A stretch of DNA of 64,000 bases, taken from NCBI GenBank assembly GCA_964567755.1, contig CAZMNW010000020.1:110434-174433 (forward strand), given 5' to 3'. Below the pieces are notes generated by a model. The model was not told the DNA's origin. It did not search any database and saw only the letters and a program-made list of their open reading frames with translations. Position numbers and translations under genes: made by a program. Each line of letters begins with the position of its first letter. The first letter of the stretch is position 1. The stretch is from an uncultured bacterium. GTDB taxonomy: Bacteria; Krumholzibacteriota; Krumholzibacteriia; G020349025. Shown here piece after piece: positions 18,988-45,807 of this stretch.

Positions 18988-19022
18988 AGCCAAGGGCGAT
19001 CTCTGCAAGCGCGATGAACTCA

Positions 19023-19103
19023 GTGCGGCCCCTCACGAGGCCCGAATGCGTTTCCTGGTTGGAGAGGTCCCGGGGGAGATGGTACCCTCCCTCAGGAATC
19101 ATC
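19023..19103 (+). promoter_or_regulatory. conserved 5-prime leader element with hairpin (GGGGGAG...CTCCCTC) preceding paralog 2
   Basis: About 80 bp nearly identical to 24486-24565 upstream of paralog 4; stem-loop ends about 14 nt before the ATG. Confidence 0.4.
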
Positions 19104-24427: not shown

Positions 24428-24485
24428 AGCCCCGTTGTGAAGGCGCCTGCGACGAGGCGAGCCGTAAACGGACCTTGAAACCAAT

Positions 24486-24565
24486 GTGGCCCCTCTCGAG
24501 GCCCGAATGCGTTCCCTGGTTTGGAGAGGTCTCGGGGGAGATGGTAGTCTCCCTCTGGAATCATC
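24486..24565 (+). promoter_or_regulatory. conserved 5-prime leader element with hairpin GGGGGAGA-tggtag-TCTCCCTC (24534-24555) preceding paralog 4
   Basis: Near-identical to 19023-19103; 8-bp stem with one G-U wobble. Confidence 0.4.
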
Positions 24566-27246: not shown

Positions 27247-27607
27247 CCGGACCTCCGTAGATTTACGGATGGCTCTTGCTCCTGTGTGGCTCTCCCTCGC
27301 CGTCGTGCCACCGACTTGGACTTCCGCCGACCCGTATTGCCACTCGATTGCGTTTCCCTTGAGTGAGAGGTCTTGCGTGAAGGTGGTACCCTCTTGCTGG
27401 AATCAGACAAGGTTTGGTACGGGCGGATGGTGCGCCTTCGGCGCACCCATGCTCGCGATGGAACATGCGCCGTTTTGGGCTCGGTCACGCTCTTCGCCTT
27501 TTCCCCTCTCCAGAAGCGGCATGCAGGCTGAGGCTGCCGAGGGCGACGAGTCTTGGTGGGGTGGCTTCGTTTGGCTGGGGCCCAGGGTAAACGCTCACGA
27601 CGCGTGA
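27247..27607 (+). pseudogene. remnant of a fifth beta-propeller paralog (leader plus first ~60 codons only)
   Basis: 27380-27600 is homologous to the leader and N-terminal coding region of paralogs 2 and 4 (ggtaccctcttgctggaatcag...; MQAEAAEGDESWWGGFVWLGP vs AGALEGDEHWRGRFVWPGAG); homology stops at about 27600 with an in-frame TGA. Confidence 0.5.
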
Positions 27608-27645: not shown

Positions 27646-30600
27646 GTGGTGAACCAACCAGATTCTCGCCAGCGCGCGCGCGCGTTCCTTCGCATGTGCG
27701 ATCGAAGCGGGCGCGTGTGGGCGTGCGTCTATCTGTTCTTGCACATGGGCTTGCTTCTCCCCGCCACGGCTCACGCCCAGCCACCGCTCTTGAGCGCGGA
27801 TCCTGTGTGGGTCTCGCCTTCCCACGCGACTCGCGGCCTCGCTCTCGGCGACGTGGACATGGATGGCGATTTGGATCTCGTGCTCGGCAACTTCCGCGAG
27901 GCAACGACGCTGCATCTCAACCAGGGCGGGCGTTTCGATCCTGCACCGGCGTGGTCGTCACCGGTTCAGCCGACGACGAGCGTGGCGCTCGGCGACGTGA
28001 ACGGAGATGGCGCCATCGATCTCGTGTGTGGCAATGTGAATCAAAGCTCACGATTGTACCTCAACGTGGGGGGCCGGTTCGGAGATACGCACAACTGGCT
28101 TTCCGAAGGCCATGCCACAGAGGACGTCGCGCTGCTGGACGTGGAGGGCGACGGTGATCTCGATCTCATCTGCGCCAACCAAGACCGAAGCGTGCTCTAC
28201 CTGAACGAAAATGACCAACTCGGCAATGTTCCGCACTGGAATTTCCTCACCAGTGCATCGGCAACAGCATGTGGCGACTTGGATGGAGATGGGGATCTCG
28301 ACGTGGTGTTCGGCACATCTCCGAAAGCATCGTTCCATCGCAATGAAGGCGAGATTTTCTCGAGCGCCATCAACTTCTCGCAAGACCAGTCGACTTCGGG
28401 CATCGCCTTGGGAGACGTGAATGGAGATGGCGATCTCGATGTCGTCCTCGGAGGCAGCAGCACGACGACGCTCTATCTGGGCCAGGGAAGTTCCTTCAAA
28501 GTTTTCCCGGATTGGATTCTCCAAGCCCCGAACACCACGGACATTGCGCTAGGAGACGTGGACGGAGATGGAGATCCAGATCTCGTCTGCGGCCATGCTG
28601 ATCAAAGCACGAAGTTTTACCTCAATGAATCCGGGACGTTCACCAACACTCCGTCGTGGACGTCGCAAGTGCACGCGACGCAGAACATTGTGTTGGGCGA
28701 CGTGGACGGCGACGGCTGGATCGATCTCGTGTGCGGCAACGAGGATGAAGGCACGGTGCTCTATACCAATACGGCTGGACGTTTCGACGCAACCCCTGTT
28801 TGGTCGTCCTCGGAGTTCCGCACGTTCGATGTGGTGCTCGAAGACGTGGATGGGGATCACGACTTGGACGTGTTCCTCGGCAACTCTGGCCAGAGCACCA
28901 TGCTCTATCTCAACGCCGGGGGGACGCTGAGCGCTTCGCCCATCGACGTGTCGCGAGCACACTTCACGCAGGGGATCGCCGTCGGCGATGTGGATGGCGA
29001 CGGTGACCCAGATCTAGTCTGCGGCAACGGGCTCTTCGGCAACACTCTCTATCTCAATGTCGGAGGTGTGTTCGGTCCCGACCCGGTGTGGACTTCGCGG
29101 CCGCATGGAACGCTCGACGTGGCACTTGGAGATGTCGATGGGGACGGTGACTCGGACCTCGTGTGCGGCAATCCATTCCAGCCAACTGTGCTGTATCGCA
29201 ACGAAGGCGGACGCTTCGGCAGTGAACCCGCTTGGATGTCGCAACTTCACGATACCCGCAGCGTCGCGCTGGGCGACGTGGATGTCGACGGAGATCTGGA
29301 TCTAGTCTGTGGCAACATCAATCAGCGCACGACGCTCTATCGCAACGAGAACGGAATTCTCGGGACTGTGCCATTTTGGTTTTCGCAGGCGCATGCGACT
29401 GCGGACGTCGCGCTGGGCGATATCGACGGCGATCGCAGACCCGATCTTGTCTGTGCCAACACCAACCAGGAAAGCGTCGTTTATCGTAACGAGGGGGCGG
29501 GTTTCGGCGACGCTCCCCATTGGCTGTCCAAGACTCAGGCGACAGCCGCGGTCACGCTGGGCGACGTGGACGCCGACGGCAGGCTCGATCTCCTTTTCGC
29601 CAATCACGCCGAGCCGGCGACGATTTACCTCAACGGGGAGTCCGGTCTCGCGGCCGCTCCCGCATGGTCGTCACCAGTGCAAACGGCGAGCAGCATCGCC
29701 GCAGGGGACCTGGATTTGGATGGTGATCTCGACTTCCTCTGTGGAGGCAACATGCAGAGCTCGAGGTTGTACACTGGAACCTCGAGCCGTCCTTTCCGAG
29801 GCAATCCTCAGACGCCCGTACATCACTTGCCCAATCAGGATGCCGCACTGCGCTACGCGCACGTCGAGGTGCAGGGCGCGAATTGGGCTGCAGTGCGCTT
29901 GTTGGCGGTCGACCTCGAGTCGGATCCAGTGTGGATCCTGGCGGAGTATCAGTTCCGTGGCGAGCCCGAATGGCATCCTGTGGATTCGGCTGACACTTCA
30001 GGGCTTTTCGGACCGTTCGACACCTCGCCTCTCGGTGCCGCGCACGTGCTGTCATGGAAGTTGGATCGCATCCCCGTCGATCCCCGCCCGGTCGTCCTGC
30101 GGTTGAAGGCGATCTCTCACCCGCGCCGCACGGGTGAGATTCGCCACATTGGCGCTTCTCTCGTGGATGTGGGTGTGGTCGACGTGCGGCGACCGGTCAT
30201 CGCCGCATCCGTTTCCACTCTGGAGTTTTCCACCGTTACCGTGGGCGACACGGTGACGGCAATGGTCACGATCTCCAATCGTGGCAACGAGCTGCTCACG
30301 TTGAATCAGGTCGTAACTGCCTCGCCGGAGCTACGCGTCGCGCAATCTACGCCTTTCGCCATCGACCCAGCGGGACACGTCGACCTGGAGGTATTCCTCG
30401 AGCCGCTCGCTCCACGCCTCGACTGGGGAGATCTCTCGATCGAGAGCAACGACCCGTCCACGCCACTGCTCACCATCGATATCGCGACGGATGTGCGCGA
30501 CTTGTCGTTCACCGCACGGCTGCTCACAGCGACACCGGAGGTCCCCGTGGGCCAAGCGCTCACGGCCGTGCTCACGCCCGCGGCTCTGGTCCGGATCGAA

Positions 30601-32481
30601 ACCGCCGCGGTGCACTATCGCGCCGCAGGCAGCAATCTTGGTTTTGCCAGTGCGCCGCTTCTGCCTCTGGCTGGCGATTTCATCGGCGCGATTCCGAACG
30701 CAGGAATCACCGAAGGGGGGGTGGAGTACTTCTTCGAGGTAGAAAACAGCAGCGTGGTCGCAACGGAACCACGTTCCGGTGGCTATTACACCCAAGCGGT
30801 TCGAGCTCCCGAGGCCATCGCGGCCGAACCCTTGCCGAATTCGGGGGCAGAGTTCCTCGTGGGGCGTGATGTGACCGTCCAAGTCGCGCTTCCCGAAGGG
30901 ACGGAGTTCGTTCGCGGCGCCGTTCACTTTCGGCGTGGGGGCGAAGGAGACTACGCCATCGACAGCTTGCGGAGCGCGAGCCCTTTCCCGTTGGCCACGA
31001 TCGGTCAAGGTTTCGTGACCGCGCGGGGGATCGAGTTCTGGGTCGATGTACAGACGCGAACGCGCACATTGACGCAGCCGCCAATCGATCCAATGGCCAA
31101 CCCGCAAGTGGTGCAGACGCTGGTGCGGGATTTGGAAGAGCCCACGGTGCACCCAGGTCGTCGCTTCCGGCTGATTTCGGTGCCGCTCGATTTCGGCGCG
31201 GCGACGAACCGGACGCTCGAGGCCCTGTTGTCCGGTGAAAGCGAGTTCGGTCCCTACGATCCGTTCCGGTGGCGTTTATTCCGCTATCTGCCGGAGTCGA
31301 ACACCAACGAGGAGCTGTCAGCCGGCAACGTCGCGTTCCAGCTCGGGCTCGCGCGCGCGTTCTGGCTGGTGAGCCGCGACGATCACAGGATCGACACATC
31401 TCCCGTGGATGCGCTGTCGACGCCGACGGGTGCGCCGTTCCCGATCGTGCTCGGGTCGGGTTGGAACCAGATCGGCAATCCGTTCGCGTTCCCGGTTTCG
31501 TGGGAGTCGGTGCAGGTTCCAGCCGGTGTCGGGTCGCTGACGGCATTCGATCCGGGTCTTGGAACGATTGGAGACTTCGTCGATGCGTCGGGGATCCTCC
31601 AACCATTCGAGGGCTACTTCGTCCACAACAGTTCGGCGGAGCAAGAGACGTTGTGGGTACCGCCTGTGGAGTCGCCGTCTATGGTGCCGGCGAAGTCGAT
31701 GCCGCGCACGATGTCCCTGGATTCGTGGTCTGTGCGTTTGCAGGCCAGGACGCGAGTGGGGTTCGACGGAGCCAACACCTTCGGTGTAAGTGCTGCAGCA
31801 ACGGATGGTGCGGATGCATTGGATCGGGTGAAGCCGCCGCAAGTGCCGGGTCCGTGGGTGCGAGCGAATTTCGTGCTACGGAACGCAAGCCAGGAGCTTT
31901 ATCGGTCGGACGTGCGCAGCGCTGCACACGAGGGCAACTTGTGGGAGCTGGAGGTGCGCAGCGAAGCCGAATCGGAGGCGGTGACGCTAGAGCTGGTCGC
32001 TACGTCTCGATTGCCGGCTGATCTCGGCATTCGGCTGTTGGACGAGGAGCAGGGGACGACGGTGGATCTTTTGCAGCCCGGTGGTGAGCTCGGCCGCTAC
32101 ACCATCGTGGGGCGCGGGCCCGTGCATGCATACCGGTTGAAGATTCTCGCGGGCACTGCGGAATACCTGGAGACGGCCGGCGGTGCGATCGTCGAGCTTC
32201 CGGCGCGTGTGGTTCTGGATCTCGGGCCGAATCCATTCAAGGAGGCAGCGCGGATCCGATTCGGCTTGCCGCGCGCCACGCAGGCGAGTCTCTCGATCTA
32301 CGACGTGCGCGGCCAACGAGTGGCCGAGTTGCGTCGGGGAGAGAAGCTCGCTCCCGGTTACTACGTGTCGGTGTGGCATGGGACGGACACGGCGGGCCGG
32401 GAGCTCGCGAGCGGTGTGTACTTCTGCCGCATCGAGGCCAGCGCCACCACGCTCACCAAGCGCATCGTGCTCTTGAGATGA
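27646..32481 (+). CDS. giant secreted FG-GAP/VCBS-repeat protein with FlgD-Ig-like C-terminal domain, paralog A
   Basis: Start uncertain (GTG 27646 or ATG 27694); signal peptide VWACVYLFLHMGLLLPATAHAQ; 13 or more FG-GAP-type repeats (GDVDGDGDLDLVxGN...LYxN); conserved middle region; C-terminus LDLGPNPFKEAARIRFGLPRATQASLSIYDVRGQRVAEL...VYFCRIEASATTLTKRIVLLR. Confidence 0.8.
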   Translation: MVNQPDSRQRARAFLRMCDRSGRVWACVYLFLHMGLLLPATAHAQPPLLSADPVWVSPSHATRGLALGDVDMDGDLDLVLGNFREATTLHLNQGGRFDPAPAWSSPVQPTTSVALGDVNGDGAIDLVCGNVNQSSRLYLNVGGRFGDTHNWLSEGHATEDVALLDVEGDGDLDLICANQDRSVLYLNENDQLGNVPHWNFLTSASATACGDLDGDGDLDVVFGTSPKASFHRNEGEIFSSAINFSQDQSTSGIALGDVNGDGDLDVVLGGSSTTTLYLGQGSSFKVFPDWILQAPNTTDIALGDVDGDGDPDLVCGHADQSTKFYLNESGTFTNTPSWTSQVHATQNIVLGDVDGDGWIDLVCGNEDEGTVLYTNTAGRFDATPVWSSSEFRTFDVVLEDVDGDHDLDVFLGNSGQSTMLYLNAGGTLSASPIDVSRAHFTQGIAVGDVDGDGDPDLVCGNGLFGNTLYLNVGGVFGPDPVWTSRPHGTLDVALGDVDGDGDSDLVCGNPFQPTVLYRNEGGRFGSEPAWMSQLHDTRSVALGDVDVDGDLDLVCGNINQRTTLYRNENGILGTVPFWFSQAHATADVALGDIDGDRRPDLVCANTNQESVVYRNEGAGFGDAPHWLSKTQATAAVTLGDVDADGRLDLLFANHAEPATIYLNGESGLAAAPAWSSPVQTASSIAAGDLDLDGDLDFLCGGNMQSSRLYTGTSSRPFRGNPQTPVHHLPNQDAALRYAHVEVQGANWAAVRLLAVDLESDPVWILAEYQFRGEPEWHPVDSADTSGLFGPFDTSPLGAAHVLSWKLDRIPVDPRPVVLRLKAISHPRRTGEIRHIGASLVDVGVVDVRRPVIAASVSTLEFSTVTVGDTVTAMVTISNRGNELLTLNQVVTASPELRVAQSTPFAIDPAGHVDLEVFLEPLAPRLDWGDLSIESNDPSTPLLTIDIATDVRDLSFTARLLTATPEVPVGQALTAVLTPAALVRIETAAVHYRAAGSNLGFASAPLLPLAGDFIGAIPNAGITEGGVEYFFEVENSSVVATEPRSGGYYTQAVRAPEAIAAEPLPNSGAEFLVGRDVTVQVALPEGTEFVRGAVHFRRGGEGDYAIDSLRSASPFPLATIGQGFVTARGIEFWVDVQTRTRTLTQPPIDPMANPQVVQTLVRDLEEPTVHPGRRFRLISVPLDFGAATNRTLEALLSGESEFGPYDPFRWRLFRYLPESNTNEELSAGNVAFQLGLARAFWLVSRDDHRIDTSPVDALSTPTGAPFPIVLGSGWNQIGNPFAFPVSWESVQVPAGVGSLTAFDPGLGTIGDFVDASGILQPFEGYFVHNSSAEQETLWVPPVESPSMVPAKSMPRTMSLDSWSVRLQARTRVGFDGANTFGVSAAATDGADALDRVKPPQVPGPWVRANFVLRNASQELYRSDVRSAAHEGNLWELEVRSEAESEAVTLELVATSRLPADLGIRLLDEEQGTTVDLLQPGGELGRYTIVGRGPVHAYRLKILAGTAEYLETAGGAIVELPARVVLDLGPNPFKEAARIRFGLPRATQASLSIYDVRGQRVAELRRGEKLAPGYYVSVWHGTDTAGRELASGVYFCRIEASATTLTKRIVLLR

Positions 32482-32527
32482 TTCTTTTTTCGGCGAGCCC
32501 AGTCCGAAGGCCCGGACGAGGACGAAA

Positions 32528-35500
32528 ATGAAACGTTGGCAGAGCCTGTTTCCACGCCACACTTTTCAAAGCCTCTTCGTAGCGTTCTTCGTCATGGTCA
32601 CGCTGAGCCGACCGATCGGGGCGGAGGAACCCACTTTTGGTCAGACGCCCGCGTGGGCTGGCACTGTGGAGTTCACTCGCAGCGTTGCGTTCGGTGACAT
32701 GGATGGCGATGGCGACCTCGACCTCGTCCGCGGCAACGCTGACCGGCCGATGACCCTGTACCTCAACATCGGCGGCACGTTCGCTGAATCTTGGACACCG
32801 ATCGGAAACGCGGGCCACGTCGCAAGTGTCGCCTTGGGCGATATGGACGGCGATGGTGACCTCGACATCGTCGTTGGTGGGGACGGGGGGACAAGACTTT
32901 TCCATAATGCAGGACTCCAATTCGCCCGTGTATGGGCGCAAGAAGGCGAACCGACACACACCGTGGCCCTGGGCGACGTGGATAGTGATGGTGCGCTGGA
33001 CCTCGTTCGTGGCGGCACCAGCACCACCACTCTTCACCTCAACGCCGGCGGCGTCTTCACCGACACGCCCGCCTGGACCGGACCGGCCGGGATTACTTAC
33101 AGCGTTGCCCTTGGCGACGTGAACAATGACGGCGACCTCGATCTCGTCGCAGGCGGAAACCCCTCCATGCTCTACCTCAATCTCGGCGGCACCTTCGTCA
33201 ACCAGACCTTGTGGGGATCTTATGCAGAGAGTGTTGCTCTTGGTGACGTGGACGGCGATGACGATCTCGACCTGGTTTACGGCTCCGACCCGCAATCAGC
33301 GCGACTGCATCTCAACGTTGGGGGGACCTTCAACAGGGATCCAGCGTGGACGGGGCCGGCCGGCACCTCGGCGGGCAGCGTGGCACTTGCTGATGTGGAC
33401 GGCGATGGCGACCTCGACCTGGTCCGTGGGGGTGGAATGGGCTCGCAAGAGCAAAGAACAGCGCTCCATCTCAACTCCGGCGGGACATTCGTCTCCGCGC
33501 ACGCTTGGAGCGTGGCGCAGGGCTCATTGGACATCGCCCTGGGAGACGTGGATGGTGATGGGGATCTCGACCTTGCACAGACGAACGGAGGGACGGCTGC
33601 CCTTTACCTCAACGACAGCCCCAGCATTGCCTCCACACCTGCATGGAGGGGGCCGGTCGATGAAACCCAAAGCGTGGCTCTGGGCGACGTGAACAGCGAC
33701 GGCGCCCTCGATCTTGTATGTGGAAACCGGCTTCCTGGAGGTCCAGGCCCGATGCCAGCCACGCTCTACCTCAACACCGGTGGCACGTTTGCGGCCGTAC
33801 CGGCGTGGAGTGGACCTCCCGAGGAAACCCTGAGCGTGGTCCTGGGGGATGTGGACGGCGATGGCGACCTCGATCTCGTTCGAGGCAACAACAATGCAGG
33901 CACCACGCTGTACCTGAACATCGGAAGTACTTTCGCCCCCACACCGGCCTGGACGGGGCCCAGCGCGCAAACCTGGAGCGTGAGGTTGGGAGACGTGAAC
34001 GGTGACGGCGATCTCGACCTCGTCCGCGGGAACTATGATGGGGGAGTGACTTTGAATCTCAATACCGGCGGCACTTTCGCCGATACGATGAATTGGAAGA
34101 GTCCGCTCTTTGAGAGCACTCAAGGTATCGCGCTGGGCGACATCGACAGCGATCAGGACCTGGATCTCGTTGCTGGAAATTACAACCACCCATCCAGTCT
34201 GTATCTCAACTTCGGTGGGAAGTTCCGTCTGGACACCCGTTGGAGCGGACGCCACGAGTGGACCAAGAGTGTAGGGTTGGGGGACGTGGACGGCGACGGC
34301 GACCTCGACCTCGTCCGCGGAAACTACAACGTGGGCTCCACGCTTTATCTCAACGCCGCCGGCACGTTTGCGAGCACACCGGCTTGGACCGGGCCCGAGG
34401 AGGGTACCAGAAGTGTGGACCTGGGATGTAGACGGGGACGGTGACCTCGACCTCGTACAAAGCGTCACCGTGGGAGTATCGCTGTTCCTGAACACTGGGG
34501 GAACGTTTGCCGCTGAGCCCACCTGGCAAGGATTGGAGGGCAACGGCATCAGCGTTGCGCTCGGCGATGTGAACGGTGATGGAGCGCTCGACGTCGTCCG
34601 AGGAGGTCGAGATGCAATTCTTTTCTTGAACAGGAGTCCGTGGATCAAGGACGGCGCCGCGGTCACGCACCTGCCCAACAATGACGCCCATCTGCGCTGG
34701 GTCCGCGCTACCCGAGTCGACTCCACCCGCTACCAAATCTCCTTTTTCGCGGTGGATGCCGAATCCGATCCGCTCTGGCTCGTCGGCGAGTACCAACGCG
34801 AGGGAACCCCGATCTGGTACGCCATGGACATCGAGGGCTCCTCACCCCGCGCTGGCCCCTTCGAATCGTCCCCTGCTGGAATCAGGCAGGAAGTGTCATG
34901 GGACGTGACCCAGCTTCCGTTCCATCGCGGCAACATCGTGATCCGGTTGCGAGTGGTTTCCTTGCCGCGGCGTGTCGGCGTCGTCCAGTTTGTTCCCTCC
35001 TATGTCGCAAACGTGGGACTGATCACGCCCGTCAGGCCGGCGATCGCGGTCGCACCGGAGACGCTCGTTTACCCCACTTTGACCGTCGGGGATTCGGCAT
35101 TGGCGACGCTCCAAATCTCGAATCCTGGGAACCGCGATCTAGTCATCGATCAGATCGAGTCCCCACACGCGGAAGTTCACGTCGACGCCGAGCTGCCTCT
35201 CGTCGTGGCACCAGGCCAGACACTGTCCGTCGACGTCCTCCTCGCGCCCACATCGCTGATCGTGGGCCTCGATCCCGTTCGAATACATACCAACGACCCA
35301 ACGCGCCCGATGCTAGACATCCCTGTCGTCACGGATGTCCGGCCGCTTCAAGTCACGACCGATCTGGTCACGGCACTACCGGAGCTTCCACTTGGCGAGG
35401 CAACGAGTGTGATCGTGACTCCGGCGCCACAAGTACACGTGGAGAAGGGATTTCTGCACTACCGCGGTCGCGCGCCGGGCGTCGCATTCTCCGACAGCGT

Positions 35501-37340
35501 CGCCCTCGTGCCACGCGGAACTGGTTTCATCGCGCTCGTACCCGGCGAGGACGTGAGCGAAGCCGGGCTCGAGTACTACGTCCGCGTGGAGAACAGCAGC
35601 GTCTTCGCTTTCGATCCGCCGGGAGCCCCGAATTCGACATTCTTCTACCCGGTAGCAGCGCCGGCCGGGATCTCGAGCGCGGCCCAGGCCGATCCGTCGG
35701 GCAACTTCCCGATGGGTCGACCCACACCCATCGAGGTGTCCATGCCACAGGGTTCGATCTTCCAATCCGGAATCGTCTACTACCGGCCCGGCGGCGCGGC
35801 GACCTACGACAGCCTCGATCTTGCGCTCGCAGAGGTGACGCCTGGCGTTTTCTCGCCGGCGGGCACCATTCCGGGTGCGGCGGTTGGACCACGTGGCCTG
35901 GAGTATCGGGTGCGGGTGCTGACGTTGACGCGCCCATTGACGGATCCTCCTTGTTCAGACTGCAGCAACGCACGAGTCGTGCGGACGAGCGTGAGCAACC
36001 TAGAAGAAGGCCGATCGTACCCCGGCCGGCGCTTCCGCTTGGTCTCGGTGCCTGTCGATCTGGGCTCGAGCCGGACGTTGGACGCGCTGCTCACCGACGA
36101 AGGTGAGTTCGGTGCGTACGATCCGGTGCGTTGGCGGCTATTCCGCTACGTGGGTGAGACGCACACGAACGCGGAGTTCGCTTCGGGGTCGGAAGTGTTC
36201 CACGTCGAGCCGGGGCGGGCATTCTGGCTCATCAATCGGGATGGTCATCGGATCGATACATCGCCTGTGGATGCGCTGTCGACACCAACAGGTGCGCCGT
36301 TCCAAATCGTGCTCACGCCGGGCTGGAACCAGTTCGGCAATCCGTTCGCGTTCTCGGTTTCGTGGGAGTCGGTGCAGGTTTCAGCCGGTGTCGGCTCGCT
36401 CACGGCATTCGATCCGGCTCAAGGGACGATCGGAGACTTTGCCGAGGCGTCGGGGATTCTCCAACCCTTCGAGGGCTACTTCGTCCACAACAGTTCGGCG
36501 GAGCAAGAGACGTTGTGGGTGCCGCCTGTGGAATCGCCGTCCGCGGTGCCGGCGAAGTCGATGTCCCGCACGATGTCCCTGAATTCGTGGTTTGTGCGTT
36601 TGCAAGCCAGGACGCGTGAGGGATTCGACGGGGCAAACGCCTTTGGCGTGGATCCCGCTGCCGCTGACGGACGAGATCCTCTCGATCGGGATGAGCCGCC
36701 CTCGCCGCCGGGTCCGTGGGTGCGGATCGCTTTTGTGCATGGAGACGAGGAGAACGGGTATCGCCGAGACATGCGCACGGCAGGGAAGGATGGCAACATC
36801 TGGGAGCTGGAGGTGCGAAGCGAGAAGGAGTCGGAGCCGGTGACGTTGGCGCTGCTGTCGGACTCGGAGTTGCCTGCAGAGCTCGCAGTCCGTCTCGTGG
36901 ATCTGGAGCAGGGCGCGTCGCTGGATCTGCTCCGTCCCGGCGGAGAGCCGAGTCGGTACGAGATCGTGTCCTATGGACCCGACCACCCTTACCGTTTGGC
37001 GCTGCTCGCCGGCACAGAGGACTACCTGGAGAGGGAGGACGGATCGCTCGTCGAGCTGCCGACACGACTCGTGCTGGAGCACGGGTTGAATCCATTCCAC
37101 GAGGCGACGACGATTCGCTTCGGATTGCCGCGCGCGAGTGCGGTGACGCTGGCCATCTACAACGTGCGCGGTGAGCGGGTGGCGGTGTTGCGGGAGGGCG
37201 ACTTGGCGCCGGCTGGATATCACGTGTCGCTGTGGAGGGGAATGGATGGAACGGGAAGGCCCGTGGCGAGCGGCGTGTACTTCTGCCGATTGGAAGTCGG
37301 GGTGACGCAATTGACTCGTCGAATGGTTCTTCTGAGGTAG
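32528..37340 (+). pseudogene. giant FG-GAP/VCBS-repeat protein paralog B, disrupted by a frameshift near 34420-34430
   Basis: Track ORFs 32528..34444 and 34368..37340 are one gene in two frames; the junction ...SVDLGCRRGR* vs ...WTWDVDGDGDLDLV implies a 2-nt deletion within a GDVDGDGDLD repeat codon block. Confidence 0.7.
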
Positions 37341-37345
37341 ACGCC

Positions 37346-37867
37346 ATGGGTGCGCATCGAATCGCAAATGCACGCGATCGGGATGAGCAGCGGAGGCTCT
37401 ATCGGGGAATCCATGCCAAAGCGCGGCTGAACCCCGTTCGCTCGAGCGGCGGTGCGATCTTGGTCTTTGCGTTGCTGACCGTGCCGGCAAGCTTACTTGT
37501 CTTGCCGCGGCAAGTGTGGAGCCAAGTGGACTTTTTCCAACCGCCTTCCTTGATCTCGAGTCAGGACCGCAATACGCAGGGCGTCGCTCTGGGGGACGTC
37601 GATCGCGACGGCGACCTCGACCTCGTGCTCGGGAACTACAGGCAAAGCGCGACGCTCCATCTCAACTCCGCAGGGACTCTCGGTTCGATGCCGGCTTGGT
37701 CCTCCGACCTTCCGCATCGGACGACGAGCGTCGTTCTAGGAGACACTGACGGCGACGGCGATCTCGACCTCGTTTGTGAGAACTTCGCGCAGAGAACGAC
37801 GCTGTATTTGAACGAAAACGGCAGCTTCGGCGTCGAACCGGCTTGGTTTGCAGGCCGGTGCGCTTGA
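37346..37867 (+). pseudogene. internal-deletion remnant of an FG-GAP paralog (N-terminal ~165 codons joined to the extreme 3-prime end)
   Basis: N-terminal signal-like sequence and two or three FG-GAP repeats; its last ~30 nt plus the downstream spacer (gcgcttgaaatgaatcggttttttt...cgaaggcc...gaaaATG) match the 3-prime end and junction of paralog A (cgtgctcttgagatgattctttttt...cgaaggcc...gaaaATG). Confidence 0.45.
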
Positions 37868-37922
37868 AATGAATCGGTTTTTTTGTGGTGAAGCCAGTTC
37901 GAAGGCCAGGTGCGAGGCTGAA

Positions 37923-40900
37923 ATGAAGACGAGTTGTCGAATACCCCAGCACAGGTTCGCCCTCAGGGCTCCGCTCCTTGCATTGGCGATCGTCGGTTTC
38001 CACTCGTCCGCTTGGAGTCAAACGCCCCTGTCATCTGCGCCTGTGTGGTCGTCGCAGGTGCATTGGACGCGGGGTATCGCCGTCGGGGACGTGGACGGCG
38101 ACGGCGCTCTCGATCTGCTACTCGGCAACCAAAGCGAGAGCAGCACACTGTACCGCAACGTGGCGGGCATTCTCGGCGCCGACCCCGTCTGGTCCTCTCA
38201 GGTCGACAAGACGAGCAACGTGGCATTCGGTGACGTGGACGGCGATGGCGACCTCGACCTGGTGTGCGCGGAGTCGGAGGATTTCACCGGAAACAAGACG
38301 ACACTGTACCTCAACGAAAATGGAGTGCTGGCCGACACACCGGTTTGGTCGTCACGGCTCGACCAGACGCACGACGTCGCGCTCGGGGATGTGGATGGAG
38401 ATGGCGATCTCGACCTCGTCTGCGGCAACGACAGCCTGAGCACCTTGTACCGCAACGACGGCGGCAGGTTCGGGGACGATCCCGTCTGGTTTTCACAGCC
38501 CCACGAAACGTACGGCGTCGTCCTCGGAGACGTGAACGGCGACGGAGATCTCGACCTCGTCTGCGGAAACGCGGTTCAGGGCACGACGCTCTATCTCAAC
38601 GCAGAAGGTGTCTTCGGCGCGGCTCCCGTTTGGGTGTCGCAGGTGCACGGGACGTACAGCGTCGACCTTGGGGATGTGGACGGCGATGGCGATCTCGATC
38701 TGGTGGTCGGGAATGGCTTCAACCTCGTCGTACAGGGACGGACCAAAACCTTGCTCTATCGCAACGACAACGGGAGGTTCGGCGATGTGCCGGTGTGGAG
38801 TTCTGCCTCCGAAGCGTTCACCACCGCTGTCGTTCTTGGCGACGTGGACGGCGATGGCGACCTCGATCTGGTCCTCGGCAACCGCGAGGCGAGGACGGAG
38901 CTCTATCTCAACGATGGCGGCGATTTTGGCAGTGCTCCCGCTTGGTACTCACAGGATCACGAGACGCAAGATGTGGTCCTGGCGGACGTGAACGGTGACG
39001 GTGGGCTCGATCTCGTGTGCGGCAACCGGCTCCAGAGCGCGACGCTGTATCTCAACACCGGTACGAGTTTCGGTGCCACGCCCGACTGGTCGTCTCCAGT
39101 GCCCTCGACGCTGGTGACGTTGGCTGCGGCCCTCTGTGACATCGAGGGGGACTCGGACCTCGACCTGGTGCTCGGTCTGAGCCGAGGCCTCATGCTCCAT
39201 CACAACACGAACGGCAACTTCGGAGAAGCGACTGGGAGCTTCGGGTCGGGCGCGACGCGGGCCATCGCTCTCGGAGACGTGGACCAGGACGGCGACACCG
39301 ACATGGTGGTTGGCATCAAGACGGGGACCACTCTGGCGGTGCTCCTGTACGCCAACCATTCTGGTTCGTTCACCTACGTGTGGTCGTCGCTGGTCGATAC
39401 GTCGCAGTTCTACGACCCGGACGTCGCGCTCGGGGACGTGAACGCCGACGGGAGGCTCGACTTGGTGGTCGGGACTCCGAACCAGGGCGCCCTGCTCCAC
39501 CTGAACGAGGGTGGTCGTTTCAGTGACGAGCCGATCTGGTCCTCGCCAGCGCCGTACAAGTTCGCTCGCCACGTTGCATTGGGCGATGTGGATGGCGATG
39601 GATGGCTCGATCTGGTTTGTGTGCTCGGCTCAGGTCTCGGTGTCGCGGTCTTTCGCAATGATGGCATTGCGTTCGAAAACACGCCCATGTGGTCTTGGAG
39701 TGTAAGCACCGCGGTCGGGCACGTGGTGCTGGGCGACGTGAACGGTGACGGCTGGATCGATCTAGTTTGTGGCACCATTCTCGATAGTGTGACGCTTTTC
39801 ATCAACTCCGGCGGCACGTTCGCGGACAGCCCGGTTTGGGCATCCCCGACCGCCCATGAGTGGCCTCGTGTCGCCTTGGTGGACGTGAATGGGGATGGCT
39901 GGCTCGATCTCGTCGTGAGCACCAGGGAAAACAAGAACACTCTGCTGTATCTCAACGAAGGTGGCGGGTTCGGTGATGCTCCGGCTTGGCGCTCGCAATC
40001 GGCCGACACCCCTGGCATCGCTGTGGGCGACGTAGATCGAGATGGAGATCCAGACCTCGTTTGCGCCAACTACGATCAGCACACGACACTCTATCGCGGC
40101 AGGTCCAGCTACCGGTTTCTGGGCGACACCCGCGCGCCGGCGAACCAGCTGCCGAACAACGACGCCTTCGTATCGGGGACATTCATCACCGAGACGGGCG
40201 AGAATCGTTACGGGATCGGCTTCGTCGCCGCCGACATCGAAGCGGATCCGGTGTGGATCGTGGCGGATTATCAATTCCGTGGCGACCCGAGGTGGGCTCC
40301 GGTCCAGGTTCTGGGAGCGACTGGCAGGCTGGGACCGTTCGCGACCACGCCAACCGGGAACACGCATCGTTTGACCTGGGACACCTCTCGTCTTCCCGTC
40401 GACTCCCGGCCCGTCGTGCTGCGGCTGCGTGCGCTCTCGAACCCAGGCAAAGTCGGCGTCGTGCAGCGCGTCCCCAGCTACCGCTACGAGCTCGGGCCGA
40501 TCGACGTTCGGCGGCCGATGATTTCGCTATCGCGGCCCGCTCTCGATTTCCCGAGCGTCACCGTGGGGGACACTGTCGAAGCCTCGACTCGGATCGAGAA
40601 TCGTGGCAACGAAATGTTGACGATCGAACGTCTCGCGGTTCCCGCGTTCACTCGGGTTGTGGGGGAGTTGCAGACAGACATTGCGCCCGGAGACGGCGTG
40701 GATCTGCTGCTTTTCTTCGAGCCGCTCTCCGCGCTCGCCGCCGCCGAAACTCTCTGGATCGACAGCAACGATCCAGCGACGCCTCGGCTCGCCGTGCGGT
40801 TGCAGAGGGACGTGCGCGAGATCGAATTCACCGCACGTCTGCTCGCGCCCGTGCCCGAGGTTCCCGTCGGACAGGCGTTGACCGCGGTGCTGACCCCGGC

Positions 40901-42899
40901 AGCGGATGTTCGCATCGAGAAGGCCGATATTCGCTACCGGGAATCGGGGAGCGACGCAGCCTTCGTGACCCGACCCCTGCAGAAGGTCGGCGGCGACTTC
41001 ATTGGCACGATTCCGAACGAGGGTGTGACCGAGGGGGGTGTCGAGTACTACTTCTCGGTCGAAAACAGTAACGTCATCCGAACTCATCCACCTGACGGTA
41101 GCTGGCTCACCCAAGCCGTGCACGCCCCGGACGGGGTCACGTCACGCGCGTTGCAGAACTCGAGCAACGGGTTCCTCGCCGGACGCAGTGTCAGCGTCGA
41201 AGTGCGCCTGCCGGAAGGCGCGCGATTCGTCCAGGGGATGGTGCATTACCGCCGAGGCGGCGAATCCACTTTCCGGTCTGCGATGCTGCAGGGGGAACCA
41301 TCTGCTCTCGCCGCCACCATCCCGGACAGCGCTGTGACCGAGCGTGGGCTCGAGTATTGGGTCGAGGCGCAGACGCTGACGAGCATTCTCACTGACCCGG
41401 CGTCCGATCCCGCGCTCGCCCCCCACACCCTGCGTCTCACCGTGCAACGGATGGAAGAACCACTTGCGCACGCCGGTGCGGTTTACCGCATGGTCTCGAT
41501 CCCATTGGACTTCGGCGAAGGTTTCTCCGGCACGCTCGAAGCGCTCCTGGCCGAGCTGCCGGTTTTCGGTTCCTACGATCCGTTGCGCTGGCGATCGTTC
41601 CGTTGGCTTCCCGAGCGCCAATGCACTCAGGATGCGTACGCCTGCTACGTCGAGCTCGGCGACGACGAAGCGTCCATGGTGCGCCCGGGTCGCGCCTTCT
41701 GGCTGGTGACGAAGGAGTCGCATCGAGTCCAATTCCAAGTGCCGGGGCAGTCCGCCTCGACAAAGGAGCGATTCGCGGTGCAGCTTCAGCCAGGATGGAA
41801 CCAAATCGGGAACCCATTCGCTTTCCCCGTCGCATGGCAAACGATCGCAATCGATTCGTTGTCCGATGGCAGTGCCGCCAGAGTCGAGCCTCCCTGGCTA
41901 TGGATCGTGTCGGCTGACGGCCGGGGCGCGTACGAGAATGCGGCAGTGTTGGCGCCATTCGAGGGCTACTTCGTGGTCAACAACAGCCCCGAACCGGCGG
42001 CGTTGCGGATTCCAGCACTCGAGGCGGCGATGCTCGTAAGCGGAATCGCGGGCAAGGCAACTTCGGGGGCCACAGGCAGGGTTGCATCGGACTTCGACAT
42101 CGTCATCCGAGTTGACGCTGCCGGTTTTTCGGATGCGGCACACGCCGGACTCGTCGAAGAAGCCGCGCGAGGCTGGGACGCGCGCGACCGTTCGGATCCC
42201 CCTGGAGCTCCTGGCGGGGCGGTGTCCATCTACTTCCCGCACGAGGATTGGGACACCGTGGCGCATGCATTCTGCTGGGATACGCGTCCCCTCGCGTATT
42301 CGGGCGGAGTCGCCCCCACGCCGGTCCTGCTCGGAGGCGGTGAGGCATGGAGACTCGACGTCGCGCGCGCCGGGTTCGCGCCCGGAACCGAGCTCGACGC
42401 CGTACTCACAGTCGAGGGCATTGCGAACCTGCCACCGTCTCTGGATGCGGTGTTGCTGGACCATGTGCTGGGAAGCGAAATCGATCTGCGCCGCGAATCG
42501 CAGTGGCGCTTCGTGCTGGGGGACCGCGGGGTGGTCGGCGAAGCGGCCGCACGTTTCGAGCTCGTGATCGGGGATGCGGAGTTCCTTGGTTTGCATCGGG
42601 AGGCTTTGCTCGCATTGCCGCTCCGAACGCGCCTGCTGCCGAACCAGCCCAATCCATTCCACAGCGGCACCACGATTCGCTACGAGATCGCGACCGGGGC
42701 CGAGGCAGCGCTGCGCATCTACGACGTGCGCGGGCGTCTGGTGCGGACGCTCGCCCAGGGGCCGGCACGGCCGGGACGCTACGAGCTGATGTGGGATGGC
42801 ACCGACGCGCGTGCGAACGTCCTGCCGGGTGGGGTGTACTTCACGCGCCTCGAGACCCCGGGTGCAGTGCAAACGCGAAAGATCCTGTTCGTGCGATAA
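37923..42899 (+). CDS. giant secreted FG-GAP/VCBS-repeat protein with FlgD-Ig-like C-terminal domain, paralog D
   Basis: MKTSCRIPQHRFALRAPLLALAIVGFHSSAWSQ signal; more than 15 FG-GAP repeats; C-terminus LLPNQPNPFHSGTTIRYEIATGAEAALRIYDVRGRLVRTLAQGPARPGRYELMWDGTDARANVLPGGVYFTRLETP...KILFVR. Confidence 0.8.
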   Translation: MKTSCRIPQHRFALRAPLLALAIVGFHSSAWSQTPLSSAPVWSSQVHWTRGIAVGDVDGDGALDLLLGNQSESSTLYRNVAGILGADPVWSSQVDKTSNVAFGDVDGDGDLDLVCAESEDFTGNKTTLYLNENGVLADTPVWSSRLDQTHDVALGDVDGDGDLDLVCGNDSLSTLYRNDGGRFGDDPVWFSQPHETYGVVLGDVNGDGDLDLVCGNAVQGTTLYLNAEGVFGAAPVWVSQVHGTYSVDLGDVDGDGDLDLVVGNGFNLVVQGRTKTLLYRNDNGRFGDVPVWSSASEAFTTAVVLGDVDGDGDLDLVLGNREARTELYLNDGGDFGSAPAWYSQDHETQDVVLADVNGDGGLDLVCGNRLQSATLYLNTGTSFGATPDWSSPVPSTLVTLAAALCDIEGDSDLDLVLGLSRGLMLHHNTNGNFGEATGSFGSGATRAIALGDVDQDGDTDMVVGIKTGTTLAVLLYANHSGSFTYVWSSLVDTSQFYDPDVALGDVNADGRLDLVVGTPNQGALLHLNEGGRFSDEPIWSSPAPYKFARHVALGDVDGDGWLDLVCVLGSGLGVAVFRNDGIAFENTPMWSWSVSTAVGHVVLGDVNGDGWIDLVCGTILDSVTLFINSGGTFADSPVWASPTAHEWPRVALVDVNGDGWLDLVVSTRENKNTLLYLNEGGGFGDAPAWRSQSADTPGIAVGDVDRDGDPDLVCANYDQHTTLYRGRSSYRFLGDTRAPANQLPNNDAFVSGTFITETGENRYGIGFVAADIEADPVWIVADYQFRGDPRWAPVQVLGATGRLGPFATTPTGNTHRLTWDTSRLPVDSRPVVLRLRALSNPGKVGVVQRVPSYRYELGPIDVRRPMISLSRPALDFPSVTVGDTVEASTRIENRGNEMLTIERLAVPAFTRVVGELQTDIAPGDGVDLLLFFEPLSALAAAETLWIDSNDPATPRLAVRLQRDVREIEFTARLLAPVPEVPVGQALTAVLTPAADVRIEKADIRYRESGSDAAFVTRPLQKVGGDFIGTIPNEGVTEGGVEYYFSVENSNVIRTHPPDGSWLTQAVHAPDGVTSRALQNSSNGFLAGRSVSVEVRLPEGARFVQGMVHYRRGGESTFRSAMLQGEPSALAATIPDSAVTERGLEYWVEAQTLTSILTDPASDPALAPHTLRLTVQRMEEPLAHAGAVYRMVSIPLDFGEGFSGTLEALLAELPVFGSYDPLRWRSFRWLPERQCTQDAYACYVELGDDEASMVRPGRAFWLVTKESHRVQFQVPGQSASTKERFAVQLQPGWNQIGNPFAFPVAWQTIAIDSLSDGSAARVEPPWLWIVSADGRGAYENAAVLAPFEGYFVVNNSPEPAALRIPALEAAMLVSGIAGKATSGATGRVASDFDIVIRVDAAGFSDAAHAGLVEEAARGWDARDRSDPPGAPGGAVSIYFPHEDWDTVAHAFCWDTRPLAYSGGVAPTPVLLGGGEAWRLDVARAGFAPGTELDAVLTVEGIANLPPSLDAVLLDHVLGSEIDLRRESQWRFVLGDRGVVGEAAARFELVIGDAEFLGLHREALLALPLRTRLLPNQPNPFHSGTTIRYEIATGAEAALRIYDVRGRLVRTLAQGPARPGRYELMWDGTDARANVLPGGVYFTRLETPGAVQTRKILFVR

Positions 42900-42911: not shown

Positions 42912-43790
42912 GTGAGCATGAAACCCAAGTTCGTCTTGCATCGGGCGCGTGCCGATTCGCCCTTTGTCTCATGGAGGGCGTGGGCGCTCGCGATCTGGTC
43001 TTTGACGATCTGCGCGCGGGGTCTGCACGCGCAGAGCCAAGAAGACTCACTGTCTGCTTCAGGGGAAGAACAACCGACGGCAGCGTCTTCTCTCGATGTC
43101 GATTCGTCCCTGGAGCAAGCGCGTGTGTTCATGACCTCCCTCGAATACGAGAAGGCAATCGCGGTTCTCGAGCCCGTGCTCGAAGAGACCCGTTTCAACC
43201 CCGATCGGTTGCGGGAGACGTATCTCCTGCTCATCGAGGCGCACGTCTATGGCGGCAACCGCAGTGCGATCGGCAGCAAGGAACAGCAGCTCTGGTACGA
43301 CGAGGCGCGCGATCTCATCCGCGAGTGCCTGGGCGTGCGCGAGCTGCGTCACACGCTGCCGGACCCGCCGGAACGTTACCCGAGCGAAATGCTCGGGCTC
43401 TTCGAGTCGGTACGGCGCGAAACCTTCGGGGCTTTCGAGATCACCCAGCTTGAGCCACGAGATGCCGAGGTGGTCTTCGACGGCGAGACACTCGTTCCCG
43501 GTGACGACGGCGTTTGGCGCGTGGCGAACGTCCCAGTGGGTGTCCGCATGCTGGTGATCCGGAAGTCGGGTTACGAGGATTTCACCGAGGATGTCGAGAT
43601 CGCGCCCGCGACGCTGGTCTCGCGCCCGTATGAGTTGCGTAAGAGAAAGGGTTTCGGGTGGTACGCGACGCGCGTCGCGGCTCCTGTCATGGTCGCCGTC
43701 GGTGTCGTGGTGGGACTGACCGCGGGTGGGTCGGAAACCCCTGCCGCGGAGGAACCCCTGCCCGTCCCGCCGTTGCCGCCCGGGAAGTAG
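42912..43790 (+). CDS. secreted PEGA-domain protein with C-terminal TM helix
   Basis: Signal-like SWRAWALAIWSLTICARGLHAQ; PEGA-like AEVVFDGETLVPGDDGVWRVANVPVGVRMLVIRKSGYEDF; C-terminal hydrophobic VAAPVMVAVGVVVGLTAGG. Confidence 0.6.
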   Translation: MSMKPKFVLHRARADSPFVSWRAWALAIWSLTICARGLHAQSQEDSLSASGEEQPTAASSLDVDSSLEQARVFMTSLEYEKAIAVLEPVLEETRFNPDRLRETYLLLIEAHVYGGNRSAIGSKEQQLWYDEARDLIRECLGVRELRHTLPDPPERYPSEMLGLFESVRRETFGAFEITQLEPRDAEVVFDGETLVPGDDGVWRVANVPVGVRMLVIRKSGYEDFTEDVEIAPATLVSRPYELRKRKGFGWYATRVAAPVMVAVGVVVGLTAGGSETPAAEEPLPVPPLPPGK

Positions 43791-43863: not shown

Positions 43864-45807
43864 TCAGTCGCGGCGGCCGCCCTGCAGGAGCCGGCGCAGC
43901 CACGGTTGCCGATCGCGAGTGGAGATCTCGGTTTCCACGAATCCCCTGAAGCAGCGCGAAAACAGCTCCGATTCCCCGTTCTGAGTTTCCAAATAATGCT
44001 TGCGACGCAGGTTCTCGCACACATGGTGCAGCGAGGCCGGGATCTTGCGTCCCTCCGCGACACGGAGTATCGCGCTGCGCTCGTGCGGATCGAAGGCATC
44101 CCACATGAAACGGTAGTGGAAGCGCGCTTCCTCGTAGAAGCGGCGCCGGATCTCGTCGAAATCGGGGTCGCCGCCATGGCCTTCCTCGAGATACTCGAGG
44201 CTGTGGCTGCAGGCGATCTGCAGGAAGAACGGGAACAGGCCCGCCATCTCCAGGATCTGACGCTCGTGAGACAGAAGCGGCCGTTGCACGTCGGCAGAGG
44301 GTACCTCTATGAGCTCGCGCGCTTCGTCGGGGCGGAGCACGCTGAGTGGCAGTGGCGTGAAGATGTTGAAGAATGGCGAGTCACGAATCTCCTGGGTATG
44401 GCAGAGCTGTTGCAGGTCACGCGCCGAAGAAGTGATGTAGGCGACATTGTAGTGATTGGCGAGATAGCGCAAGAAAGAAAAGAACTCCAAATCGAAGTTC
44501 GCATTCGTGGTGATGGCTTCGAACTCGTCCATGAGCAAGACCAAGCGCAAATCGCCGCCGTGCAAACGGTCGACCAAATCCTTGATGCCGCTCAAGTCGC
44601 GACTGCAGTCCGAGACGTCCAAGCGTCCACGTAGCTCGAGATTGGCGATGCCGAGCACCGTATTCACGAACGTATCGAGCGCCATGTTCTTTTGCTGTTG
44701 CAAATCGACGTAGACCATGATGGTCGATTCGTGGTCCTCCAGATGCTGCTCGCGGTTGCGTTTCGTGTAGATGAAATTAAGCAGCGACGATTTGCCGATC
44801 TTGCGGTCCCCGACCACCGAAACCGAACCTGGCGGTGTGGCATTCAAACGCGAGAAGATGCGGTTGACCTCTTGCTTGCGCCCGAAGAAATCCGCGGAGC
44901 TCTTGATCATGACCCGGTTCAAGTACGGATTCTTGAGCTTGGGCGCAGGGCGGGGAAGGGCCTTGGGCAAAGTCATCGTGCGGCTGGTGCTCTGCACATC
45001 CGACGAGACCAGAATCCCTTGCAGTCGCTCGGCGAGCGCCCCCGCTTCGACCGGACGCTGACCCGGCTGTTTGCGCAGACATTGATCGATCAGGCTCACC
45101 AGGGCTTCGGGCGCCTGTGGCGCGGCTTGCTGCACGGGCGGATGCGGGCGGTCGACGATGTTGTAGAGCGTGGACATGAAGTGCTCGGCCTCGAAGGGAT
45201 GCAACCCCGTCACCATCTCGTAAAGAATGACACCGAAGCTGAAAATGTCGCTGGCAGGGGTCGCTTTGTGGCCGTCGATCACCTCGGGAGCCATGTATTT
45301 GAGCGTGCCGGCGATGCCGTGACTGACGGTGACGGACATCCGGTTGATGTCGCGTGCCATGCCGAGATCCAGGATCTTGGCGCGGTCGCTGTCGTCGACC
45401 ATGACGTTGTTGGTCGACAGATCGCGGTGCACGATCTGCAAGCTGTGCAGCGCCTGGAGCCCGCGCGCGACCTGGATCAAAATGCGAAGACTGCGCTCCA
45501 GAGCCAGCGGCGGCTGCTTGGGAATGTCGCGCAGGGTGCGTCCGGGGAAATACTCCATGACCATGTAGGGGACGGACTCGTCCATGTCGTAGACCTGGAC
45601 CACGTTCTCGTGGTTCAGGCTGGCGAGACGGCGGGCCTCGGCCAAAAAGCGTTTCATCTCCTTTTCTTCGGCGATCTCGGGCTTGAGCATCTTGAGCGCG
45701 ACGCGGCGATCCAGTTTCTTGTCGTGACAGAGGTAGACCAGACCGAAAGACCCGTGGCCGAGCGTTTCGAGAACGACGTAATTGTTGCCGAAAATTTGTT
45801 CCGTCAT
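43864..45807 (-). CDS. Ser/Thr protein kinase fused to a C-terminal P-loop NTPase (AAA-like/STAND-like) domain
   Basis: Kinase motifs GHGSFGLVYL, VALK, HRDLSTNNVMV, DLGMA, APE; then NPYLNRVMIKSSADFFGRKQE...VSVVGDRKIGKSSLLNFI (Walker A) ...LVLLMDEFE (Walker B). Confidence 0.85.
   Translation of the reverse strand: MTEQIFGNNYVVLETLGHGSFGLVYLCHDKKLDRRVALKMLKPEIAEEKEMKRFLAEARRLASLNHENVVQVYDMDESVPYMVMEYFPGRTLRDIPKQPPLALERSLRILIQVARGLQALHSLQIVHRDLSTNNVMVDDSDRAKILDLGMARDINRMSVTVSHGIAGTLKYMAPEVIDGHKATPASDIFSFGVILYEMVTGLHPFEAEHFMSTLYNIVDRPHPPVQQAAPQAPEALVSLIDQCLRKQPGQRPVEAGALAERLQGILVSSDVQSTSRTMTLPKALPRPAPKLKNPYLNRVMIKSSADFFGRKQEVNRIFSRLNATPPGSVSVVGDRKIGKSSLLNFIYTKRNREQHLEDHESTIMVYVDLQQQKNMALDTFVNTVLGIANLELRGRLDVSDCSRDLSGIKDLVDRLHGGDLRLVLLMDEFEAITTNANFDLEFFSFLRYLANHYNVAYITSSARDLQQLCHTQEIRDSPFFNIFTPLPLSVLRPDEARELIEVPSADVQRPLLSHERQILEMAGLFPFFLQIACSHSLEYLEEGHGGDPDFDEIRRRFYEEARFHYRFMWDAFDPHERSAILRVAEGRKIPASLHHVCENLRRKHYLETQNGESELFSRCFRGFVETEISTRDRQPWLRRLLQGGRRD

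Follow-up and report, generated by a model that had tools for sequence, protein, structure and literature searches.

Organization of the locus

The window, that is, the whole 64,000-nt stretch of DNA analysed here, has a G+C content of 63.6% and carries on its + strand two tandem arrays of genes for large secreted proteins whose C-terminus is a sorting domain of T9SS type A. The first array consists of the U-family paralogs, whose N- and C-termini are closely alike across all four. The second array consists of FG-GAP paralogs on the + strand in the order P1, P2, S, P3. The features used below are as follows.

16276-27236, + strand: U-family array, four tandem paralogs of ~880-900 aa with a DUF5122/Rax2-type beta-propeller and a T9SS type A sorting domain
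27646-32481, + strand: P1, full-length, ~1,611 aa; the final 15 nt, with the spacer that follows, correspond to the relic at 37858-37872
32528-37340, + strand: P2, full-length paralog broken into two ORFs by a frameshift at ~34423-34425
37346-37867, + strand: S, 173 codons plus stop, from the ATG to an out-of-frame TGA
37346-37570, + strand: leader and signal-like region of S, a charged n-region followed by a hydrophobic core within residues 36-54
37571-37855, + strand: two FG-GAP repeats of S, with intact Ca-binding loops and two predicted beta-propeller blades
37852-37858, + strand: junction of the proposed deletion; FG-GAP homology stops at ~37855 and paralog 3'-end homology starts at 37858
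37858-37872, + strand: apparent relic of a lost paralog end, GTG CGC TTG AAA TGA (V R L K stop), four codons plus stop
37873-37922, + strand: spacer before P3, homologous to the P1/P2 spacer (32482-32527), with a T-run, CCAGTYCGAAGGCCMGG, and GAGG before the P3 ATG
37923-42899, + strand: P3, full-length, 1,658 aa, with a signal peptide, ~14 FG-GAP repeats, an Ig-like domain, and a T9SS type A sorting domain

P1, P2, and P3 are built alike. A signal peptide leads into 13-15 FG-GAP repeats, after which come an Ig-like/choice-of-anchor D domain, a long stretch of conserved sequence, and the sorting domain (TIGR04183/PF18962 type A; 26.2 bits in P1 and 26.1 bits in P3, cut-off 23). Their pairwise identity is 40-48% for the proteins (40% for P2 and P3) and 51-57% for codon-aligned DNA. 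C-termini in the family read ...VLLR, LVLLR, and LLRIR, each followed by the stop. The leaders are of two types, short and beginning 'MK...' in P2 and P3, and long and arginine-rich in P1 and S. Directly 3' of P3 lies a gene for a PEGA-domain protein (42918-43790, + strand) and no FG-GAP gene. Past the array, a minus-strand gene (43864-45807) encodes a fusion of a Ser/Thr protein kinase with a novel STAND NTPase domain, and beside it, on the same strand, is the gene for a 736-aa protein (45810-48020). The opposite-strand ORFs at 37665-38021 and 36384-37490 have no Pfam match.

The 5' part of S

The stop codon of P2 is 5 nt before the ATG of S, and a GAGG Shine-Dalgarno sequence is located 8 nt 5' of this ATG, within the final codons of P2. 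Therefore, S may well be translated. In the leader, residues 36-50 form a hydrophobic segment with a mean Kyte-Doolittle value of 2.19, and the structural model predicts a helix at residues 36-51. The '...VWSQ' region of S is colinear with the signal-peptide ends 'AWSQ' of P3 and 'AHAQ' of P1, and no canonical AXA cleavage motif is evident in the signal-like region on inspection by eye, made without a signal-peptide predictor. At the nucleotide level, the 225-nt leader (37346-37570) has no BLASTN similarity to any paralog or to any other part of the window.

The leader is followed by two FG-GAP repeats. Pfam scores are 63.1 bits for FG-GAP_3 (cut-off 26.9) and 37.3 bits for FG-GAP (cut-off 22.1). 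Both repeats contain a Ca-binding loop of the form Dx(D/N)xDGxxD, namely DVDRDGDLD (residues 84-92) and DTDGDGDLD (residues 133-141), the columns of which are invariant or nearly so in a multiple alignment (A3). Aligned with the paralogs, S is colinear with the N-terminal ~150-170 residues of P1 and of P3 and 44-47% identical to them, and BLASTP matches starting at S residues 51-58 run to residues 36-153 of P1 and 31-142 of P3. By similarity alone, the repeats of S are 50-60% identical to any paralog repeat pair, so that it is only through their colinearity with the signal peptide that they can be called the first repeats. The repeat DNA at 37580-37778 is 68% identical to P1 27835-28030 (E = 1.7e-13); the nucleotide identity of S to a paralog reaches at most 78% (over 88 nt), and no exact match exceeds 22 nt. 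The G+C content at the three codon positions of S (0.65/0.48/0.71) is paralog-like.

In the AlphaFold model of S, the leader is of low confidence and is followed by a hydrophobic helix and by two blades with pLDDT 93-97 (residues 80-170). In Foldseek searches, the blades match integrin alpha propellers over ~115 residues of targets of ~450, with rmsd of 2.3-2.8 Å and a target-normalised TM-score of ~0.19. In other words, the model superposes on about two of the seven blades, a coverage of about one fifth; a closed seven-blade beta-propeller is not formed by the two repeats. A T9SS C-terminal sorting domain is not detected in S with NCBIfam and Pfam, and only four terminal codons of it survive, out of frame.

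A preliminary description of the locus had read the N-terminal signal and the first repeats of the family into the 173-codon ORF. The two repeats and their colinearity bear this out, while the candidate signal is a hydrophobic segment without an evident AXA site. The alignment that it proposed with the start of P1 (27646-27900) is likewise obtained for the repeat part (37580-37778) and not for the leader.

The 3' end of S and the spacer before P3

The segment 37858-37931 aligns with 32467-32535, which comprises the last five codons of P1 (stop included), the 46-nt spacer between P1 and P2, and the ATGAA of P2. The Smith-Waterman score of this segment against the P1/P2 junction is 47, far above the scores of 2,000 shuffles (mean 16.0, sd 2.2, maximum 27), and the next best site in the whole window scores 27. 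The BLASTN E-value of the match is 0.001. The correspondence with the region around 32440-32530 anticipated in the preliminary description is thus confirmed.

The relic at 37858-37872 and the end of P1 (GTG CTC TTG AGA TGA) are identical at 13 of 15 positions. With the register fixed, the relic and P1 agree at 10 of the 12 nt that precede the ancestral stop and at all three of the stop itself, whereas the ends of P2 and P3 agree with the relic at 6 of the 12 positions each. Therefore, the claim that the 3' end of the ORF and the spacer match the ends and junctions of the full-length paralogs holds for the end of P1 and the P1/P2 junction, and does not extend to the ends of P2 and P3. The S ORF itself takes in just 10 nt of the 3' match, and these are in a different frame, as the frame of the relic is shifted by one with respect to that of S.

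The two spacers are ~75% identical, which is above the identity of the adjoining coding DNA (~50-57%), and both contain the T-run, CCAGTYCGAAGGCCMGG, and the GAGG before the ATG. The higher identity of the spacers suggests constraint on an expression signal of some kind. A 17-nt core motif of the spacer is present only at these two places. The spacers have no common fold (z = -1.5 and +0.3), no match to a terminator or a sigma-70 promoter, and no Rfam match. The spacer before P3 includes the ribosome-binding region of that gene, which is probably why it was retained.

The junction

In S, the FG-GAP pattern '...GSFGVEPAWFAG' extends to ~37855, which puts the 5' breakpoint at the end of the second repeat (~37852-37855), and the homology to the paralog 3' end starts at 37858. 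Upstream of the relic stop, the identity in the fixed register is 10/12 over positions -15 to -3 and then drops to 1/6, 5/24, and 16/60, values expected at random; the true paralogs share 30-38 of 60 positions among themselves over positions -105 to -45. Past the junction, the S frame has three or four residues that are unrelated ('RCA') and then meets a TGA by chance at 37865-37867, 5 nt before the ancestral stop. S is thus a composite of a paralog 5' end of ~510 nt, an extreme paralog 3' end, and the spacer, as the preliminary description had proposed. The length of the missing interior, about 4.3 kb, is projected from the full-length genes as 4,356 nt with P1, 4,236 nt with P2, and 4,524 nt with P3, and the earlier figure of about 4.5 kb is in agreement with this 4.2-4.5 kb estimate.

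The composite is reproduced in independent assemblies. The exact S protein is annotated on a 218,458-bp NCBI contig and is encoded on two Logan contigs. The Logan contigs come from different runs (SRR9952632 and SRR9952630), and both are 100% identical to the window from 36491 to 38264, across the end of P2, S, and the start of P3. In addition, no k-mer of at least 25 nt from 37300-37960 is repeated in the window, and the longest repeat near the junction is 22 nt, located in the DGDLDLV motif 230 nt away. A collapse of repeats during assembly is made unlikely by these two observations, and we regard it as a scarcely credible origin of the junction, although the sequence comes from a metagenome-assembled genome (MAG), the array is repetitive, and two frameshifts nearby, one of them in a G7 run, are possibly sequencing errors.

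Relatives of S in other genomes and metagenomes

FG-GAP/VCBS proteins that are T9SS cargo (PF13517/PF01839 with TIGR04183/PF18962) occur in the FCB group, and the P1-P3-type architecture of 1,570-1,660 aa is widespread. The leader and first two blades of S are colinear with members of this size, while ~90% of their architecture is missing from S, namely 11-13 blades, the middle region, and both the Ig-like/choice-of-anchor D and the sorting domains. In an exhaustive phmmer search, full-length members of 1,574-1,648 aa are colinear with S, namely P0079 (S 42-171 on residues 16-143), P0083 (S 27-169 on 16-167), and P0136 (S 28-168 on 21-155), but none is an orthologue. A comparison by the C-terminal half places the nearest relatives in a MAG of an unclassified uncultured bacterium (40%) and in MAGs of Krumholzibacteriota, Latescibacterota, and Eisenbacteria (34-40%).

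No close relative was found in the collections searched with the conserved C-terminal half of the family, the best tblastn segments having at most ~40% amino acid identity on genome contigs and at most ~50% on metagenome contigs. A homologous-protein search with S returned only proteins of at most 303 aa, none of which spans the leader, and the leader has no match in a metagenome scan. Among 116 loci of at least 8 kb, seven of which carry a large FG-GAP ORF, no short FG-GAP ORF is found beside a large one. Three candidates on long contigs for a family of short FG-GAP genes were rejected, being pieces of frameshifted long genes. On ENA contigs (L163 8001-11134 and L164 4469-8787), short FG-GAP ORFs (P0009, P0020, and P0005) lie head-to-tail with FG-GAP or FlgD_ig ORFs; these short ORFs are large family genes broken by frameshifts, probably owing to long-read assembly errors.

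Origin of S

We consider it likely that S is the remnant of a fourth FG-GAP/T9SS-cargo paralog of ~1,600 residues, here called X, that lay between P2 and P3 and underwent a single illegitimate internal deletion. Judging from its paralogs, a full-length X would once have stood at the position of S. The deletion of ~4.2-4.5 kb would have begun with the third FG-GAP repeat and ended five codons short of the stop. What would be left of X is the translation start, the leader/signal region, and two repeats (37346 to ~37855), fused to the last four codons and the stop (37858-37872) and followed by the spacer that precedes P3. The deletion would have been non-homologous or at most microhomology-mediated, with a length that is not a multiple of three, so that the frame now runs via 'RCA' into the fortuitous TGA.

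The relic is a gene end in its own frame (V-R-L-K-stop), which fits the C-terminal motif of the family and indicates that a family member once ended here. The ORF of S is intact, its codon-position GC resembles that of the paralogs, and its motifs are canonical, and we infer from this that the deletion was relatively recent. The leader is without nucleotide similarity to P1, P2, and P3, which argues that S is a distinct old lineage and no recent copy of an extant 5' end. Other decay and exchange at the locus, namely a second 5' relic, frameshifts in P2 and in the U-family gene U1, and a P1/P2 conversion tract, all described below, are counted in favour of a deletion remnant. One internal deletion in X is the most economical history, and S would be ordinary gene decay in a tandem, birth-and-death gene family. 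Other points weigh on the other side. Intact X is on none of the genome and metagenome contigs searched; the coding relic is just 15 nt long, and a regulatory element upstream of P2 and P3 that extends into the end of P1 could mimic it; and the undecayed look of S is also compatible with selection for function.

Gene remnants and truncated pseudogenes formed by internal deletion are known from bacterial paralog arrays, in line with the deletional bias of bacterial genomes. S resembles them in that both its ends are homologous to intact paralogs, its interior is absent, the frame is broken at the join, and other decayed copies are nearby. It differs from them in that its 173 codons are still cleanly open, a start signal is present, and the domain motifs are well preserved, for which it has been annotated as a gene, and in that its ancestor is deduced from paralogs.

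The join could instead have arisen by duplication. On this view, a segment that starts 15 nt before a P1-like stop and takes in the spacer and a P2-like gene would have been copied or inserted within the 5' part of a further paralog, in which case S would have been born truncated and no 4.5-kb deletion would have taken place here. The unit of P1 end, spacer, and P2 start is indeed homologous to the unit of relic, spacer, and P3 start, and the leader types shared by P2 with P3 and by P1 with S fit an old two-gene unit. However, a tandem event predicts that the rest of the interrupted paralog lies 3' of P3. The gene there is the PEGA-domain gene, which disfavours a simple tandem-duplication junction and makes a second event necessary. 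Moreover, P2 and P3 are only 40% identical, so that the junction would be ancient, and a functionless fragment of that age should have lost its ORF, its motifs, and its coding GC3. We therefore regard a duplication as unlikely. That the loss of the interior of X came about by homologous recombination between FG-GAP repeat units, as the preliminary description had it, is highly implausible. Each gene offers 13-15 repeats, exact matches reach 22 nt, and homologous exchange has occurred in the array (P1/P2 tract), but the 3' breakpoint lies in the final sorting-domain codons, ~2.7 kb past the last FG-GAP repeat; the two sides of the join share no similarity, with flanks at the random level of 16/60; and the join is out of frame, while a repeat-to-repeat exchange would leave an in-frame gene with fewer repeats. 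A two-step history, in which a repeat-to-repeat exchange was followed by a second deletion, would be needed to rescue this mechanism, and no sign of it is seen.

Alternatively, S might be functional now, either as a small Sec-exported two-blade FG-GAP protein under selection or as a 5' region kept for translational coupling or expression of P3. The intact ORF with its Shine-Dalgarno sequence, the intact Ca-binding loops, the blades predicted at high confidence, and the paralog-like codon-position GC are what such a gene would have. Yet two blades cannot close a seven-blade propeller, the T9SS domain is missing, the C-terminus is an out-of-frame accident, no conserved family of short proteins was found, and at 64% GC long open frames come easily; current function is thus quite improbable. 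A further possibility combines the two 5' relics and the P1/P2 tract into an actively recombining locus for surface-protein diversification, with truncated copies kept as conversion donors or for 5' ends that drive the next paralog, or with S as a functional two-blade secreted mini-protein. Silent truncated cassettes serve gene conversion in antigenic variation, as in Neisseria pilS and Borrelia vls, and usually are without the 5' end and start signals. Like them, S is truncated, lies beside full-length surface-protein genes, and belongs to an array with past gene conversion; unlike them, it retains its 5' end and start signals, and it has no high-identity tract of the kind expected of a silent donor, its best being the 78% over 88 nt and the 22-nt exact match given above. 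We give this possibility very little weight.

Expected product of S

The T9SS C-terminal domain is required for translocation across the outer membrane, and truncation of its last residues leads to periplasmic accumulation (PMC4804311; PMC8545088). Since S lacks this domain, its product, if made, would undergo Sec export but would not cross the outer membrane and could not reach the surface. With only two of seven blades, it would form no closed propeller. The product is most likely a non-functional periplasmic fragment that is probably degraded. As the remnant of X, the 173-aa 'FG-GAP/VCBS repeat protein' of this MAG would be better annotated as a gene remnant than as a small secreted protein. 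The locus as a whole, with its deletion relics, frameshifts, and conversion tract, would be an example of birth-and-death turnover of large T9SS cargo arrays in an uncultured lineage of the FCB group.

Other decay and recombination at the locus

A tract of ~360 nt is shared by P1 (31416-31775) and P2 (36278-36637) at 83-97% nucleotide identity, with an exact run of 53 nt. The flanks of the tract are 62-75% identical, the larger segment 31060-32429 is 73% identical overall to 35928-37288, and the remaining gene is ~50% identical. The pattern of identity indicates probable gene conversion.

A second 5' relic (27449-27607, + strand; homologous core ~27490-27598) lies directly upstream of P1. Its translation, ...FWARSRSSPFPLSRSGMQAEAAEGDESWWGGFVWLGPRVNAHDA followed by a stop, is a U-family N-terminus, with 77% nucleotide identity to 19206-19282 and a BLOSUM62 score of 102 (shuffles 28 ± 5.6, maximum 50). 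The relic is cut off after ~50 codons and part of the signal peptide is gone, as in a decayed fifth U-family gene.

P2 carries a frameshift at CTGGGATG (34418-34433), inside an FG-GAP DVDGDGD loop, which divides it into ORFs 32528-34444 and 34368-37340. With one G removed, P2 reads as a protein of 1,603 aa that is colinear with P1 and P3. The 638-aa product of the frameshifted gene has no record in other assemblies, and P2 could be either a real pseudogene or the result of a sequencing error. In the fourth U-family paralog, U1 (24566-27236), a frameshift is located in a run of seven G at 24811-24817, where the paralog at ~19335 has GCCGGGGGC. This frameshift may reflect a sequencing error in the homopolymer or, alternatively, on/off switching by strand slippage.
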